Source: Candidatus Aldehydirespirator sp. (GTDB taxonomy: Bacteria > Actinomycetota > Acidimicrobiia > Acidimicrobiales > Aldehydirespiratoraceae). Taken from it: 64,000 bases of DNA. The position numbers and the translations under genes were made by a program. This document shows, in pieces, positions 3,210-52,524 of the stretch. Each line of letters opens with the position of its first letter. The first letter of the stretch is position 1. The notes beneath the pieces are model-generated. The model was not told the DNA's origin. It did not search any database and was given only the letters and a program-made list of their open reading frames with translations. The stretch is taken from positions 1,289,992 through 1,353,991 of the forward strand of contig OZ244866.1 of the NCBI GenBank assembly GCA_965221185.1, in the 5' to 3' direction.

Positions 3210-3252
3210 GCCCCAGCGCGTGTGGTGGCCGAGCGATGATGGTTGAGTCGGT

Positions 3253-4575
3253 CTACCGGCGAATGTTGGAGTCAACCTCGTTGAGCCAGTTGCGCATCTC
3301 TTCGGGTATTTCGGGTGGGCGCAGTTGGCGAGCGAGGTTCTTGGTCGACACGGTCGTATGACCGGCTTGCTGCAGGGTCCTGTTCAGCGCGTTCAGTATC
3401 CTCTTGGCCGGATACTGGTGGAGGCGCCATTCGGGGTCCTCGGCTTGTGGCCTGAGTTCTCTGCTCGTATCACTGAAGGTGCGAGCCAGGTTCTTGCTGC
3501 CGGGTGGGCTGGAGAAATGGCGCTTCTCGGCGAACTGGCCCAGGATGTCGTCGGTCATGTTGTCTGTGATCGATGCCAGATGGGACGAGATGTAGGTCGG
3601 CGTTGTGTTTGACGCACGGGCTAGTGCCTCCGGGTCAAGCAGATAGTTCTCAAGCTCCTTCCGCTTCCAGATGTGGGCGTGGATGGCGATTGCTTCGAGA
3701 GTCGAGCGCACCTTGACGACTTCCTCATCGGGTCGATAGTCGCGATCGAGTAGCACAAATACCTCAACGGAGCCATCGAGGAAGTTTGAGACGAACCACT
3801 TGAAGGGTTCGACTTGGACCCAGTTGCTGAAGCCCTTGATCTCGATGACGGCGCAGTTGCGCTCGCCAGCTAGGTGATCGGCTCCGATGGTCTTCGCCAA
3901 TTCTCGGATGATGGACATGTCGTCGCCTTCTACAAAGACCACGGTTCGGGCACGGAGGGCCGTTGCGAGCCGCAGGTTGAAGCTTGAGCCGATCTGGGTC
4001 GAGAGATCCTCGAGCGATGCGGGCTTGGGTCGGCGAATGGCTCTGCTGCGGGTCTTGTCGACCCACACAACCGACTCTGAAGATGCCTCCGCGAGCATCT
4101 CGGATGAGTGGGTTGCGGTGATCGTCTGTGCTGCGGTTGAGTCGAGCAGTCTCACTAGACGTCGTTGGAGGTCAGCGTGTAGATATGGGGGCTGGCGCCG
4201 TGTTCGTCGCTGCGGGGCCGGTCTCACTAGACGTCGTTGGAGGTCAGCGTGTAGATAGAGGTCGGGCTCATCGAGGATCACTACATCTGCGGGCCGAAGG
4301 CGCCAGAGATGGGTCAGGATCTGTACGAAGATCTGTACGCCGTCGCCAACCCAGAAGAGCTCCTTCGGCGTCCTGTCGCCACGCTCTTGCACGAGCACGT
4401 CAAGTTCTAAATCGGCGAGCTCTCGACGCGTCGTGACCGAGAGTTTCTCGACTTCCGGGAGCCAGAAGGTCACGAACTCGTTGAATTCGTCGAACTCCCC
4501 GTCGCGTCTGATCAAGAGAAGCTGGTTGCGAGCATGCTGGCTGGACCTTCTGCCCTGGGAATTCTGTCGAACGTA
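3253..4575 (-). pseudogene. OLD/DUF4435-like ATPase-TOPRIM protein, N-terminal (Walker A) part missing
   Basis: This is the lower part of the chimeric 573-aa track ORF. It has Walker B VVILDEPDLYLH, an ATHS H-loop-like motif, then VVFVEGDDMSIIREL...VFVLLDRDYRPDEE (TOPRIM/DUF4435-like acidic motifs). The protein-like sequence stops at about 4575, at the ISL3 inverted repeat. No P-loop was found. Confidence 0.55.
4149..4257. repeat. 37-bp direct repeat pair spaced 72 bp apart (in-frame duplication inside the ATPase remnant)
   Basis: gtctcactagacgtcgttggaggtcagcgtgtagata occurs at 4149-4185 and again at 4221-4257, separated by a 35-bp spacer. The result is YLHADLQRRLVR-PAPQRRTRRQPP-YLHADLQRRLVR in the protein. 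Confidence 0.9.
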
Positions 4576-8382: not shown

Positions 8383-9570
8383 GGCCTCGGTGGCTGCGTT
8401 GGTGACCCTGGCGGCGTGCCAGTTGGCGATCTGGTGTCTCCAGTTCGAGATGGTGCGTCCCAGCCTGTTGATCTCGGGGGGCATGGCGGGGTCTTGGAGG
8501 TCTTGGGCGAGTTGGTTGACGGTGGCGGCGCCCAGGTCGGCGTCATCGATGTCATAGATGCCGCGCAGGGTCTCTTTGGCGTGCCATGCGTCTTTGACCT
8601 CGCCGTAGGGGTCTCCGGCTGCGAGCAGGCCGCGCAGGCGGGTGTCGCCTGATTCGGTGACGCGTTCGTGCGCGGCGACGAGCAGCTTGCGGGCGCGGTA
8701 CAGCGGGTCGTGCTTGTGACCGCGATGGCCCAGGGTCTGGTTCTGGACTCGGCGGCGGACCTCGTCGAGGGCGTCGTTGCCCAATCTCACGACGTGGAAC
8801 GGGTCCGCGACCTGCTTCGCGGCGGGCAGCGCGGTGTCGAACGCGGCCCGATACGGGCCCGAGAGGTCCAACACCGCCCAGCGCACCGCTGCCAGCCAGC
8901 TCTGTGGTCGCCGCAGCAGCCAGCGCGCAGGCCCATCAGCGGTGCGGCCTGGGACCACGTCGAGAAGCTGGCCCCGCGCGACGTCGACGATGCTGGTGCT
9001 CCAGGCCCGCTGAGCGAAGCGGCCCCGGCGACAGAACAGGGTCTCATCGAGGCCCAGCGCCACCACCGCGGCGATCCTGTCGGCATCCGCGTCCAATAGG
9101 GCCTGACCCCAGCGCCTCACCGACGCGTTGACGGTGTGCCAGTCACAGCCCAGCACCGCCGCGGTGTCCGCTATCGCTTCGCCACGACCGGCGCGGCGAG
9201 TCGCCCAACGGCCAGCGCGGGCAGTCAACAGCGCCCGCTGCGGCGCGATGGCAGGGTCCTGCTCACTGAACGAGCCCGCCGCGCACCCCGAGCGCGGGCA
9301 TCGCCAGCGGCGCTTGTGCCACACCAGCCGCACCGGCCGCCCGAACGCCGGCAGGTCTACCATTTCGACGCCGCGTTCGCCCTTGGACCACACCGGCCCG
9401 CCACAGCCCCCACAGCACGGCCGACGCTGTCGACACCGGATGTGCACCCGCAACGGCCCTCCAGCGGCATCATCGACGCCGAGCACCTCCACGTCGCCTA
9501 GTCCCACCAGCAACTCGCAGACGCGCGTAGGGTCACACTCCACAGGGATCCTCCCGATTCGGCTGTCCAA
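8383..9570 (-). pseudogene. ISL3 transposase, 5' piece (396 codons)
   Basis: The track ORF 8263..9570 reads like an ISL3 transposase: a zinc-ribbon region (CGGCGGPVWSKGE...WRCPRSGC), then DETLF..., ...DPFHVVRL, ...NWHAARVTNAATEA. After codon 8385-8383 the sequence becomes unrelated (TILWSVSGG...). Confidence 0.8.
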
Positions 9571-47998: not shown

Positions 47999-48009
47999 TC
48001 GACGTCTGC

Positions 48010-48115
48010 GATCTGGCCGAAGGCGTCGAGGCAGATGCGTCCGGCCTGGTCGATTGCGACCAGGTTGAGGGTGCCCCGCAGCTGGTCGCAGCCCATCGTG
48101 AAGATCGGGCGCGCC
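48010..48115 (-). pseudogene. 3' fragment of a thioredoxin-fold redoxin gene, paralogous to 49155..49655
   Basis: QLRGTLNLVAIDQAGRICLDAFGQI here compares with QLRGTPSLVVIDRAGRIRLNAFGQI in the intact gene. At the DNA level about 100 bp align with 49226-49320. Confidence 0.65.
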
Positions 48116-48188
48116 GGTTCGGCGTCGGCACGGCGTACACTCGCATTTCATGCCGGTCACCAGGTCCGGTCAGTAAGAGAGAGAATCA

Positions 48189-48386
48189 ATGCGAGGAACT
48201 GTCAAGTTTTTTAATAGCGAGAAGGGCTTCGGCTTCATCTCGCGCGATGGCGGGGACGACGTGTTCGTTCACTACTCCAACATCGTCGGCGAAAATCACA
48301 GATCCCTTGACGAGGGGCAGATAGTCGAATTCGACATCGGGCCCGGTCGCAAGGGAGACGAAGCTAGGAACGTCAAGCCGGCCTGA
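48189..48386 (+). CDS. csp: cold-shock protein (CspA family)
   Basis: [32 protein letters not shown] carries the RNP1 (KGFGFI) and RNP2 (VFVHY) motifs. The protein is 65 aa. Confidence 0.95.
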
Positions 48387-48403
48387 TCCCACAGGTTCGC
48401 TGT

Positions 48404-48432
48404 GCGCCGCCGGCTAGATTGACCGGCGGCGC
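48404..48432 (+). terminator. hairpin terminator candidate downstream of csp
   Basis: A perfect 10-bp stem, GCGCCGCCGG (48404-48413) pairing with CCGGCGGCGC (48423-48432), encloses a 9-nt loop. A short T-run (cgacgTTTcg) follows. It lies 18 nt after the csp stop. Confidence 0.6.
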
Positions 48433-48533
48433 TCGACGTTTCGCGCATCACTGCGCGAGCGTAGGGCGAACCGAGAACCAGAACGGCTCCCGGAATACTG
48501 GGGGATGAAGCCTTCGCGGCCACCCGTTGTGGA

Positions 48534-49097
48534 TCAGTCGGGGATCCAAGGTTCGGTCTCGATGCCGAGACCGTCGGCGACCCGGTTCGCGTACGCGTAG
48601 TAGCCGACAACCTCGACTATGTCGAGGATGTCGCGGTCAGAGAAGCCGGCCGATCGCAGGGAGTCGACATCGGCGTCGTTCATCGCGCCCGGCGTCGTGG
48701 TCAGCTTGGTCACGAATCTCAGCATCGCCACCCGGTTCGGCGACAGCGCTGCAGTTGTCCAGTCTTGTTCGATCGCCGCGACCAGTTCGTCGTCGTTGAT
48801 CAACCGGCGCAGACCGCGCCGGTGGTGGACGACTCAATAGTGACAGCCGTTCTCGAGGCTGACGACCAGGCCGATGAGCTCGCGCTCCACCTTGCGCAGC
48901 GTCGCGGTGCCGGCCATGGCCGATTCGTACAGACCCTGGTGTGCCGCCATGGAGCGCGGGTTGAGCGAGTGCACGGCGAGGATGTTGTCGACCCGGCCGT
49001 ATGTGCGATCGACTACTTGGGGATGGAGCTCACCGAGCGCGCCGTCCCAGGAGTCGTCGGGGATGACCTTGATGCGTGCCATGGTGCAGCGTTTCAC
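48534..49097 (-). CDS. AhpD/carboxymuconolactone-decarboxylase-like peroxidase-related protein with in-frame TGA (candidate selenocysteine; otherwise a pseudogene)
   Basis: Track ORFs 48834..49097 and 48534..48803 share a frame and are separated by a single TGA (48836-48834). The joined sequence reads ...LIGLVVSLENGCHY-TGA-VVHHRRGLRRLINDDELV.... That places the TGA at the second Cys of the family CxxC motif. A SECIS-like hairpin follows. Confidence 0.65.
48803..48823 (-). promoter_or_regulatory. candidate bacterial SECIS hairpin
   Basis: The mRNA reads UGA-GUCGUCCACC-ACCGGCGC-GGUCU-GCGCCGGU. The 8-bp perfect stem begins 11 nt after the UGA, and the apical GGUCU occupies nt 19-23. Confidence 0.55.
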
Positions 49098-49154
49098 ACC
49101 AGTCGGCGACTCGGCGAATCTGCGATTCTGAGAGTGCCGCCCACCGCCACGGCG

Positions 49155-49655
49155 TCAATTCTCCGGCTGGGGGCGGGGTTCGTCGATGAGGCGGGCGAGG
49201 GTGGCGCCCACGGTTGGGTCGTCTATCTGGCCGAACGCGTTGAGGCGGATGCGCCCGGCGCGGTCGATGACGACCAGGCTGGGGGTGCCCCGCAGCTGGT
49301 AGCGGCCCATGGTGATGGGCAGGCCGACGCCGGGGTCGTGGGCGTCGACGCCGACGGGGAAGGTGATGCGGTACTCATACAGGAAGGCTTCGAGCGAGGT
49401 TGGAGTCATGGCGTCGTGGTGCTCGAACACGGTGTGCAGCCCCAGCACGGTGACCGCGTCGCCGAAGGCGTGCTGGATGCGCTGGGCCTGGGGCAGCCCG
49501 TGGGAGACGCAGCCCGGGCACAGCATCTGGAACGCCTCGATCACCACCACCTCGCCCTGTAGATCGGCCAGGGTCGGGGTGGCGGCGGTGTTGAACCAGC
49601 GGGCGGTCGCCAGCTCAGGAGCAGCCGGGTACGTCGATTGCATGCTCGAGGCCAT
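49155..49655 (-). CDS. thioredoxin-fold redoxin (TlpA/AhpC-TSA-like)
   Basis: The active site is CPGC (FQMLCPGCVSHG). It has a TlpA-like C-terminus (LRGTPSLVVIDRAGRI). Confidence 0.75.
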   Translation of the reverse strand: MASSMQSTYPAAPELATARWFNTAATPTLADLQGEVVVIEAFQMLCPGCVSHGLPQAQRIQHAFGDAVTVLGLHTVFEHHDAMTPTSLEAFLYEYRITFPVGVDAHDPGVGLPITMGRYQLRGTPSLVVIDRAGRIRLNAFGQIDDPTVGATLARLIDEPRPQPEN

Positions 49656-49807
49656 GTCACTCCCGGTAGTGCAGTTCCTCTACTACGGTCGCCGTCGGCG
49701 GCGCCCAAGCATTCGGATTCATCCCCGCGAATTAGATCACACATCGAGACCCTGCATTTCACCCGCAGCCGCCTAGTTCAAACGCGTACGAGCAGGGGAG
49801 CGATGCT

Positions 49808-49925
49808 GTGACCGAGCACGAAGAGTCCGACACTGGTGGTGACGGGCCGGCGGTGGTGTTGCTGCACGGGGTGCTGATGAACGGCACCTTGTGGGACGGC
49901 CTCGTCGACAGTCTGCGGGCCGCTA
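49808..49925 (+). pseudogene. N-terminal ~40-codon fragment of an alpha/beta hydrolase, paralogous to 56565..57416
   Basis: DTGGDGPAVVLLHGVLMNGTLWDGLVDSLRA here compares with DTGGDGPVVVFLHGVLMNGTLWDDVVDRLRG in the intact gene. DNA 49826-49925 aligns with 56604-56703. The fragment stops where the convergent DUF2784 gene ends. Confidence 0.75.
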
Positions 49926-50318
49926 TCGACGCGTTCCGAGCGGCAGCTCTTCGCGTCCTGAACCCTTGCCGACGGCGGCGTACAGCAGCCACGACAGGCA
50001 CCAGACCACCACGACGACCAGCAGCACGTTGCCGCCGCCGGGGCTCAGACCGGGAGCGTAGAACGGCTTCACGAAGTACTGGGAGATGAAGCCTCCCCGG
50101 TACGGCGTCTCGCCCGCGAGGCGCCAGAAGTGCTTCTCCCAGACCGTCAGCGGGCACGGCAGCCTGGGCAGGTTCACCGCCGCGACCGGCACCAGCATGG
50201 CTAGGTACCACTTCATCAACCGGGGCTTGAGTGCGGCCATTGGAGCGCCCACGATGATGAACACCGCCAGCAGCCCGTGCGCGAGCGCTATCGCGATTGC
50301 CAGCAACCACGCACCCAC
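49923..50318 (-). CDS. small membrane protein (DUF2784-like)
   Basis: 131 aa with hydrophobic segments. The central LPCPLTVWEKHFWRLAGE resembles the CPLT..E motif I associate with DUF2784. Confidence 0.5.
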   Translation of the reverse strand: MGAWLLAIAIALAHGLLAVFIIVGAPMAALKPRLMKWYLAMLVPVAAVNLPRLPCPLTVWEKHFWRLAGETPYRGGFISQYFVKPFYAPGLSPGGGNVLLVVVVVWCLSWLLYAAVGKGSGREELPLGTRR

Positions 50319-50536: not shown

Positions 50537-51097
50537 ATGAGTGCATCTGGTAGAGACGATCGGCCGATGGCGAACAGCTACTGGGTTGATCCGGGCCGTT
50601 TCGCGGCGGGCGAGTATCCGGGCGCGAGGCGTCGGAAGGAAGCCGCCACCAGGTTGCGAACCCTGCTGGGGGCCGGCATCGACTGCTTCATCGACCTGAC
50701 CCAGCCGCACGAGGGGTTGGCACCCTATGCCGGGATCGCGGCGCAGGAAGCCGGCCGGCTCGGCACGGAGTGCGTGCATGAGCGGCATTCCATCGTCGAT
50801 ATGGACGTGCCTCGCAGTCAACAGCAGACAGCCCGCATCCTCGACGCCATCGACAAGGCGTTGGACGACGGCAAGAACGTCTACGTGCACTGTTGGGGCG
50901 GCATCGGCAGGACCGGCACCGTGGTCGGCTGCTGGCTCGTGCGCCACGGCATGACCGGAGACGAGGCTCTGGCCCAGATCGCGCAGTGGTGGCAGGGAAT
51001 GGAAAAGAGGTACCGCCACCCCCGCTCGCCACAAACACCACAGCAGCGTAGGTACGTCCGGAGCTGGACCGAACCGTCTCCGGGGGCCGCCGCGTGA
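50537..51097 (+). CDS. dual-specificity/tyrosine protein phosphatase (CX5R)
   Basis: The active site is [13 protein letters not shown] (HCxxGxxRT). The stop overlaps the GTG of the next reading frame (GTGA). Confidence 0.75.
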
Positions 51098-51290
51098 GCG
51101 CAGCCGCCAACCGGGACCGGTTCCGGGGCTGCCTGCTGGGACTGGCGGCGGGCGATGCGCTGGGCACCACGCTGGAGTTCAAGCCGCCCGGCTCGTTCGA
51201 GCCGATCGACGACATGGTCGGCGGCGGGCCGCATCGGCTGCAGCCGGGCCAGTGGACCGACGACACCTCGATGGCCCTGTGCCTGGCCGC
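51094..51290 (+). pseudogene. ADP-ribosylglycohydrolase, N-terminal ~65 codons only
   Basis: [58 protein letters not shown] is the conserved ARH N-terminus. Homology ends where the convergent MFS gene terminates. Confidence 0.7.
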
Positions 51291-51294
51291 TGGT

Positions 51295-52524
51295 TCAATC
51301 GGCCTTGGTGCTCCCGGTGGGCCGGTGCCACATGAGGGTGGCTGCAAGCGCTGAGAACAGCGCTACCGGGGCCCACACCGCCAGCCAGCCGAGCTTCTCG
51401 GCTGCCCATCCGGCCGCGACCGGGCTCACCAGCGCGGCCACCGCGAACATGGTCGACACGACCCCAGTGATCATCCCCGTGGACCGCTCGCGCCCGACAG
51501 TTATGTGGGCGAAGAGCAGCGGCGTCCACCCCCAGCCGGCCACGTACCCCACCGGAATGCCGACGAACATCACCGCCGTGGCGCCCGTGGCCATCGCCGC
51601 ATAGCCGGCAACCGCCACCGCGGCCATGGCCGCGATGGTCCTGGGAGCGTCCAGATCCCGGCGGGTCACCGCGTGAGCGCAGCCGATCCGCATGAGCACG
51701 CTTCCCCCCGCCGAGGCCGCCACCAGAGCCGCCGCAGTGTCGGCACTGGCTCCGGCGTCCACGAACGACAGCGACGCGAAGGCGTTGAACACCACCAGGT
51801 TGATGAACAGCAGCGCGGCGCCGCCAAGAAAGCCCAACCCCAGAGAGGCCACATCATCGCGGGCGCTCCGGGGCGGCCCGGCTGTGACCGGTGCCGCAGG
51901 ACCGGACCGTGCTCCCACCGGCAGCGACTGTCTCCGGGGCCGTGCCGGTCCCATCAGCAGCGCCAAGCCCGTCAACGCGAACACCGAGCACGCGGCGAAC
52001 ACGGTGCGCCAACCCAGCCGGTCGCCGAACACCGGCAGCACCGCGGTGGACACCAGCACCAGCAGCGGCATCGCCGCCTCACGAATGCCGAAAGCGAGAA
52101 CCCGCGGCGTGCGAGCCAAGAAGTCCACCAGGATCCTCGAAGAGCTCGGCTCAGACAGCACCCGCAGGATCCCGGCTGCGGCCAGCAACGCCACGAACCA
52201 CGCCGTGCTGGGCGCCTGCGACAGCGCCACCATGAACAAGCAGCCACCGACGCAGGTGAGCCGGCCCACGTTGATGCCGCCGACGCGGTCGGTCACCCGT
52301 CCGAGCCACACTGCCAGCACGACCGCGGGAACGGCTGACAGTGACAAGCCCAGCCCCAACTCGGACGAGCTGATCCCCAAGTCGAGCCGCAGGTAGGGCG
52401 CCAGCGGACCCGAGATGATCTGCGGCGTGGCCCCCGCGGCCAGCAACGCGCTGGCTGCGGCCACCGCGGCCGCGTCGGAGCGAATGGTGCTACCACGGCG
52501 ATGCCGGGTCACGGCAGGATGCAC
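51295..52524 (-). CDS. MFS transporter
   Basis: 409 aa with about 12 hydrophobic segments. It has MFS-like loop motifs ([17 protein letters not shown]). Confidence 0.7.

Follow-up and report, generated by a model that had tools for sequence, protein, structure and literature searches.

Selenoproteins of the AhpD-like kind, in which selenocysteine (Sec) takes the place of the second cysteine of a CxxC redox motif (CxxU), were described in the Sargasso Sea survey, which contributed 27 AhpD-like CxxU (COG2128) sequences (Zhang, Fomenko and Gladyshev, 2005). The Global Ocean Sampling (GOS) survey of 2008 counted 299 Sec sequences and 902 Cys homologues of 'AhpD-like 1', which ranked fourth in abundance among the families of that survey; in the Sargasso Sea data, too, the AhpD-like CxxU selenoproteins belonged to the most abundant families. 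A 2026 review in Applied and Environmental Microbiology (AEM) (PMC13188914) gives TIGR01926 as the model of the selenoprotein family 'AhpD-like protein, CxxU'. Here we describe a gene of this kind in a stretch of 64,000 nucleotides (nt) from Candidatus Aldehydirespirator sp. (contig OZ244866.1, positions 1,289,992 to 1,353,991), called the window below, whose first letter is position 1. An earlier note, made from the letters of the window alone, had proposed that an in-frame TGA in an AhpD-like gene encodes Sec, and had mentioned that AhpD-like selenoproteins are reported in other bacteria.

It is very probable that positions 49082-48534 of the minus strand form one gene for a 182-residue AhpD-like thiol/selenol oxidoreductase of the carboxymuconolactone decarboxylase (CMD) fold, in which the UGA at codon 83 is read as Sec. 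Likened to the described family by hidden Markov model (HMM) and motif, the protein matches the same HMM, has CxxU with Sec at the second Cys and holds a single Sec; as in that family, a hairpin with G in its apical loop follows directly downstream, and Cys homologues are widespread. Because the protein reaches the TIGR01926 HMM and carries the CxxU motif, its kind is already known, and it represents neither a new mechanism nor a new protein family. What is specific here is the lineage, the UGA form in every orthologue recovered and the consistently split annotation. Whereas the known family comes from ocean-surface reads of unknown origin, the present group belongs mostly to sponge-associated Acidimicrobiia (Actinomycetota), and, unlike the known family, it is annotated as fragments in public records. 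In the literature that we searched, no paper mentions this selenoprotein for these taxa.

An in-frame UGA at the second redox cysteine of an AhpD-like gene

Two minus-strand open reading frames (ORFs), 48834..49097 and 48534..48803, lie in the same frame, and the sole break between them is the TGA at 48836-48834, in the context ENGCHY-TGA-VVHH. Both the sequence and the joined translation (...RKVERELIGLVVSLENGCHY*VVHHRRGLRRL..., the asterisk standing for this TGA) confirm what had been said of the two frames before. The joined product is indeed one continuous protein, but it has 182 residues with Sec at position 83, and not the 187 first proposed. Since the orthologues all begin with MARI or MAWI, the start was placed at ATG 49082 (MARIK...) rather than at GTG 49097, and judging from this alignment it is almost certainly there, with the UGA as codon 83 (Table 1).

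For the profile and domain searches, Cys was put in at the UGA position. The protein scored 135.7 bits against TIGR01926 ('peroxidase-related enzyme', NCBIfam; cutoff 81.8), with residues 25-177 on profile positions 23-176 of 178, and it is also matched by Pfam CMD, in agreement with its earlier identification as a carboxymuconolactone-decarboxylase/AhpD-type 'peroxidase-related' protein. It does not belong to TIGR00777, which is AhpD sensu stricto, the AhpC-reducing adaptor of Mycobacterium tuberculosis (20.3 bits, cutoff 191.95). Neither is it a member of NF041238 (AhpD_rel_CFYUT; 36.6 bits, cutoff 175): this family, also known as 'hypothetical protein 1' of the Sargasso Sea, resembles the window protein in having C-x-Y-U in an AhpD-type domain, but its 357-position profile was aligned only over the C-terminal domain.

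The closest solved structures found by phmmer are 3c1l, 2pfx, 6k40, 2oyo and 2prr, with E-values of 1e-27 to 1e-17, and in 3c1l, 2pfx and 6k40, the three closest and the ones shown as alignments, the UGA column is the second Cys of C-x-Y-C. The internal TGA thus falls at the second redox Cys of an AhpD-type protein, as had been predicted. More broadly, the Cys-type AhpD-like structures (3c1l, which is Mlr4105; 2pfx; 6k40, annotated AhpD; PA0269, which is 2o4d; and M. tuberculosis AhpD; phmmer E-values 1e-27 to 1e-6) share the all-helical CMD fold family and the pattern E-x11-C-x-[YH]-C-x3-H, but have Cys where the window protein has UGA. The proton-relay residues are Glu36/Cys48/Tyr50/Cys51/His55 in Pseudomonas aeruginosa PA0269 and Glu118/Cys130/His132/Cys133/His137 in M. 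tuberculosis AhpD (PMC3141380). In the window protein, Glu68/Cys80/Tyr82/position 83/His87 are spaced as E-x11-C-x-Y-C/U-x3-H, equal to both of these sets, so that a CxxU motif with the Glu and His relay residues is present; the TIGR00777 profile positions stand at an offset of 50 from those of the query. In contrast to the gene for M. tuberculosis AhpD, the window gene has no conserved adjacent ahpC.

A scan for orthologues, with one genome per species, gave 65 loci at 62-95% amino acid (aa) identity. The nearest of them, at 95%, is from Ca. Aldehydirespirator, and the rest are from this genus, Ca. Poriferisodalis, Ca. Spongiisocius and further Acidimicrobiia, mostly sponge-associated. By their labels, the genomes with TGA orthologues fall into three named families (Aldehydirespiratoraceae, Spongiisociaceae and Microthrixaceae), the genus Ca. 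Poriferisodalis and a large number of unclassified Acidimicrobiia; some of them have two copies. All 66 sequences (the window and the 65 orthologues) have TGA at the column, and never TGC, TGT, TAA or TAG. In homologues at 22-54% identity (L079, L082, L067-L076 and L107-L133 among them) the column is a Cys codon, TGC or TGT. The comparison of the U/C column that the earlier note had suggested therefore gives TGA in all close orthologues and Cys in distant homologues and in structures; a close orthologue with TGC and no hairpin, which that note had named as the sign of a plain nonsense mutation, was not seen among the 65, all of which have TGA, with the hairpin conserved. Both halves of the gene are under purifying selection, with ratios of nonsynonymous to synonymous substitution rates (dN/dS) against the window sequence of 0.14 upstream and 0.23 downstream of the TGA.

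TGA also occupies the column in 17 metagenome-derived loci, 14 with the same TGA and hairpin, the others being L106, L141 and L142. The protein of L106 (WNFJ01200195.1) is only 43% identical to that of the window and reads ...ANGCRY-TGA-IEHHGAALRQ, followed at the same distance by a 7-bp hairpin of other sequence, ACGGAGC-GGC-GCUCCGU. Because this locus carries both the TGA and a hairpin of its own, the Sec form appears to extend past the sponge clade.

Table 1. Features of the AhpD-like gene, in window coordinates.
Feature	Position	Strand	Detail
AhpD-like coding sequence (TIGR01926 / CMD fold)	48534..49082	-	ATG 49082-49080; 182 codons and terminal TGA
In-frame UGA, codon 83, predicted Sec, motif C80-H-Y-U83	48834..48836	-	Conservation and alignment with Cys homologues
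SECIS-like hairpin (SECIS, selenocysteine insertion sequence)	48803..48823	-	Apical loop 48811-48815; 6-bp core 48816-48821 with 48805-48810
Active-site segment	48822..48881	-	Glu68 48881-48879; Cys80 48845-48843; Tyr82; Sec83; His87 48824-48822
True terminator, TGA again	48534..48536	-	Reading of the frame

The hairpin downstream of the UGA

On the mRNA, the sequence 3' of the internal stop is UGA-GUCGUCCACC-ACCGGCGC-GGUCU-GCGCCGGU. It forms a perfect 8-bp stem (48823-48816 with 48810-48803) that begins 11 nt past the UGA and is capped by a 5-nt loop, and the 21-nt hairpin alone has a folding energy of -15.7 kcal/mol. The description in the earlier note holds for the window; among the relatives, only six base pairs (CGGCGC/GCGCCG) are essentially invariant, whereas the seventh pair is found in about 60% of sequences and the eighth in about 8%. 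Perfect 8-bp hairpins with loops of 3-7 nt occur 24 times in the window compared with about 10 expected, and the chance of such a hairpin at the right distance from a given TGA is about 0.004. The single sequence alone is suggestive and not conclusive; the decisive evidence is conservation.

The three codons for R89 (CGC), G90 (GGT) and L91 (CTG) have zero synonymous entropy in 62/62 distinct sequences, compared with a mean of about 1 bit for the codons of conserved Arg, Gly and Leu residues in the rest of the gene; GGT is, moreover, an unusual Gly codon at this G+C content. The sole freely variable pair of the stem, pair 18-30, joins the third positions of R88 and R92, and it is G-C in 40 sequences, G-U in 8, C-G in 2 and U-A in 1, and never broken. 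Cys homologues serve as a control for the demands of the peptide. One of them, P0004, encodes an identical HHRRGLRR through cat cgt cgg ggc ctg cgc cga, and a second, P0010, has the similar HHSRGLSR; both lack the hairpin with its GGUCU loop. Because of this invariance at synonymous sites together with the Cys-homologue control, the region is under a constraint at the RNA level beyond what the peptide requires; covariation, being weak, is not relied on for this. The conservation of the hairpin in orthologues, which the earlier note had put forward as a check, is thus seen in invariant synonymous sites and compensatory changes, and the hairpin is missing where the same or a similar peptide holds Cys.

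The nearest proven model is the SelB-binding SECIS of Escherichia coli fdhF, whose Sec codon is TGA140. The two were compared on the DNA of E. coli K-12, with numbering from the T of TGA (nt 1). GGTCTGC begins at nt 22 in both genes, so that GGUCUGC occupies nt 22-28 in fdhF as in the window gene, with the GGUCU loop of the latter at nt 22-26; the same distance in fdhF, as given in the earlier note, is therefore correct. In both cases a G-rich apical loop sits on a GC-rich upper stem inside coding sequence. The two differ in that the loop of the window gene has 5 nt (GGUCU, closed by C-G) and that of fdhF 4 nt (GGUC, closed by A-U), in that the window hairpin has no bulged U in its upper stem, and in the lower stem.

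Decoding of the UGA and its alternatives

By analogy with E. coli fdhF, the hairpin 13-33 nt downstream (core CGGCGC-GGUCU-GCGCCG) would serve as a bacterial SECIS while the ribosome stands at codon 83, recruiting SelB-GTP-Sec-tRNA(Sec) so that the UGA is decoded as Sec in place of termination; translation would then continue to the real UGA stop at 48536-48534. Sec83, replacing the second Cys of the AhpD CxxC, would pair with Cys80 as a selenenylsulfide/selenol-thiol couple, and Glu68, Tyr82 and His87 would form the proton relay known from AhpD proteins. An antioxidant role is likely, in which the enzyme might reduce a peroxiredoxin-type partner or hydroperoxides; no conserved partner gene is evident. 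The single continuous gene, the conserved UGA and hairpin, the family and the active-site residues are observed, whereas Sec insertion, binding of SelB and the substrate are what we infer from them. As a candidate selenoprotein the gene has gained support: each of the tests suggested in the earlier note that was run came out in its favour.

Several results weigh against Sec decoding. ARAGORN found no tRNA in the 64-kb window and only ordinary tRNAs, without tRNA-Sec, in 76 loci (about 1.5 Mb of orthologous flanks), and when the window and every locus were searched by tblastn for relatives of E. coli SelA, SelB and SelD, only two weak GTPase-domain matches and no sel gene were returned. The folding z-score of a 66-nt stretch is only -1.74, which is unremarkable. 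Covariation is thin, since four of the eight pairs never vary, double changes are confined to one pair, and only three cells changed on both sides; furthermore, the hairpin coincides with the conserved peptide HHRRGLRR, so that coding explains part of its conservation. No curated SECIS model supports the hairpin either: an Rfam scan of the whole window at gathering thresholds gave no match, although Rfam has no suitable bacterial SECIS family and the scan is uninformative. Finally, two relatives depart from TGA while keeping the hairpin. L084 (P0001, from a hydrothermal-vent metagenome) has a genuine TGG (Trp) at 701-703 with the GGUCU hairpin intact, the sole such case seen; either the A has recently changed to G or the sequence is in error at this point. 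L083 (P0002, GCA_024275815.1) has TTA CTC (Leu-Leu) at the Sec column (3247-3255) instead of TGA GTA or TGA GTG, and its hairpin includes a compensatory U-A pair; TTACTCA being TGAGTAA in reverse complement, an inversion of 7 nt or an artefact of assembly seems to be the cause.

Evidence on Sec use comes from elsewhere in the lineage. SelA and SelB were found to be enriched in sponge-symbiont bins (Slaby et al., 2017; PMC5649159), and Table S4 of that study gives counts of 2 for COG1921 (SelA) and 1 for COG3276 (SelB) in bin76 (MPNA00000000). Bin76 is the source genome of one of our orthologues (L064, contig MPNA01000010.1). In Actinomarinales, another order of Acidimicrobiia, selA, selB, selC and selD are reported to be present throughout (2026 preprint). 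Sec in this lineage, which the earlier note considered notable, is less so in view of the reported sponge-symbiont enrichment and of the Actinomarinales machinery.

Two more genes in the orthologous loci have a conserved in-frame TGA. The first encodes an AhpC/TSA-domain protein of about 345 aa with WSSW-U-GC, conserved on both sides of the TGA (L012, minus strand, TGA 7164; L017, minus strand, TGA 18670), and its TGA is followed by the hairpin CCUGCC-GGUCU-GGCAGG, whose apical loop is the same as that of the AhpD-like gene. The second combines an SLH domain with a C-terminal thioredoxin/redoxin domain and has WAEW-U-PTC, a UxxC motif (L014, plus strand, TGA 14675; L024, plus strand, TGA 12516); its conservation runs through the TGA in two divergent genomes, and the hairpin downstream has another sequence. 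We regard these as candidates for the second and third selenoproteins of the lineage. With the TGA at the redox Cys of a thioredoxin fold, these two genes are, like the SelA and SelB matches of bin76, independent if indirect evidence that the lineage uses Sec.

Among the alternatives, the one that survives best is SECIS-independent read-through of the UGA by a near-cognate tRNA (Trp, Cys or Arg), with the hairpin only slowing the ribosome, especially if the Sec machinery has been lost. It could draw on the search of the window and the orthologous flanks, which gave no sel gene, and on the genuine TGG of L084 beside an intact hairpin. However, catalysis in the family depends on the Cys at this site, so that Trp or Arg there would put an end to the redox chemistry, and TGA is kept in 66/66 sequences despite a one-step route to TGC or TGT. 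The loop sequence and its distance match the proven SelB-binding SECIS, the same loop follows the in-frame TGA of the second redox gene in the lineage, and one of the genomes with an orthologue is reported to have SelA and SelB. The remaining database proteins with W at the column are no support for read-through either: those of L141 (P0003) and L142 (P0005) show W where the DNA has TGA, and P0003 also reads through the true stop. They are code-4 (TGA=Trp) pipeline translations of short contigs, an artefact that hides selenoproteins. Three database proteins with W had raised the idea that TGA is read as Trp; it was rejected, two of the three being such translations and one the genuine TGG. Read-through without Sec seems to us unlikely.

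Less likely still is that translation stops at UGA83 and restarts just downstream, so that pieces of 82 aa and about 100 aa assemble into the protein. Public gene calls do include abutting ORFs of 85 aa and 101 aa, and in many cases the call of the C-terminal half starts at a GTG right after the TGA. No start codon is conserved there, however: the window has GTC after the TGA, and the orthologues have any of seven codons (GTG, GTC, GTT, GTA, ATC, ATA or ACC). The break would lie inside the CxxC active-site helix and remove the residue that is Cys in homologues, and the invariant GGUCU hairpin would be left unexplained.

A plain nonsense mutation, either in a pseudogene or as a sequencing error at the TGA of this one genome, has hardly any probability left. 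One stop within the frame of a gene that is intact in all other respects does have the look of a fresh mutation, and some second copies in relatives are degraded (L065, L085 and L086, frameshifted amid transposases; P0007 and P0009, with internal deletions). Against this, the same TGA recurs in 66/66 sequences from independently assembled genomes at 62-95% identity, the downstream half retains a dN/dS of 0.23, and the hairpin is conserved at synonymous sites. Equally improbable is a lineage-wide change of code to UGA = Trp or Gly, for which only the W of P0003 and P0005 speaks, and these are code-4 translations of TGA, while 55/62 orthologues use TGA as their own terminator and a window-wide scan gave one credible TGA-interrupted coding frame only. 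These terminators show that UGA keeps its usual meaning as a stop in these genomes, so that recoding of the internal UGA must be local. Taken together, the data exclude a nonsense mutation, reassignment of the code and restart at a conserved codon.

Returning to Sec decoding, we put forward a broader proposal, tentatively and with somewhat less than even confidence: the AhpD-like gene might be a core selenoprotein kept across mostly sponge-associated Acidimicrobiia and one previously unnamed target behind the enrichment of SelA and SelB in sponge symbionts, with a shared loop reflecting an E. coli-like SelB-SECIS rule. If true, the GGUCU loop, which recurs in at least one further selenoprotein gene of the lineage, would speak for SelB-SECIS recognition by an E. 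coli-like rule in this actinobacterial class. The gene in itself supplies a concrete selenoprotein target in a group whose SelA/SelB enrichment had been described with no targets named. The SECIS is compact and highly conserved, and its function is directly testable in E. coli.

Annotation, copies and neighbours

That automated annotation would split the gene was predicted and is borne out by more than 100 half-protein entries in the databases. A protein search returned few full-length matches, and the more than 100 matches that are half-proteins, mostly from metagenome-assembled genomes (MAGs) of Acidimicrobiia, are either C-terminal pieces of about 100 aa, which start right after the UGA, or N-terminal pieces of about 110 aa, which end in ...CHY. 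Standard annotation thus misreads the recoding, both here and in far more than a hundred public records, as two hypothetical fragments or a truncated 'peroxidase-related enzyme', and the antioxidant capacity and selenium dependence of uncultured, mostly sponge-associated Acidimicrobiia are therefore under-counted.

Other copies of the gene differ in state. L004 and L006 are two intact AhpD-like copies about 12 kb apart on one contig. L065, a second copy in isolate f5b3f634, lies, with L085 and L086, among transposases and is frameshifted after the hairpin, and P0007 and P0009 appear to be internally deleted forms.

Upstream of the AhpD-like gene, at 49155-49655 on the minus strand, is the CPGC thioredoxin-fold redoxin of 166 aa that had been noted as its neighbour; it scores 25.3 bits against AhpC-TSA, just below the Pfam cutoff of 26. 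The redoxin is present in the window but is not a conserved partner, since it adjoins the AhpD-like gene only there and in the closest relative, L001, where only residues 52-166 are matched. Within 4 kb on either side in the 65 loci, no cluster is common to more than 11, and a redoxin/AhpD-like operon was dropped on this ground; the AhpD-like gene behaves, in these comparisons, as a unit of its own whose surroundings vary. Near it in the window there are also a convergent cold-shock gene, a Rieske/VanA-type oxygenase, a DUF2784 membrane protein, a DSP-type phosphatase and an MFS transporter. Beyond the cold-shock gene, at 48004-48102 on the minus strand, is a 33-codon relic that is 70% identical to redoxin residues 114-146, and the syntenic position in L001 (10957-11151) is occupied by a longer one; from this identity, the relic looks like the remnant of a second redoxin copy.

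A scan of 48100-50000 for promoters and terminators gave nothing useful. Between the convergent AhpD-like gene and csp (48189-48386, plus strand) lies a perfect 10-bp GC-rich inverted repeat, GCGCCGCCGG-N9-CCGGCGGCGC (48404-48432), which may be a bidirectional terminator, without a T-run.

The window-wide scan for TGA-interrupted coding frames revealed no credible case apart from the AhpD-like gene. The only other TGA between long frames with high G+C at third codon positions (GC3), at 8650 on the plus strand, was rejected: with G+C at first positions (GC1) higher than GC3, and with no redox motif, the frame is probably the antisense of a minus-strand gene. At 51094-51354 on the plus strand, an 86-aa ORF, whose start presumably resembles ADP-ribosylglycohydrolase, ends early and lies opposite part of the MFS transporter gene, which is on the other strand; the ORF may be what is left of a truncated gene.

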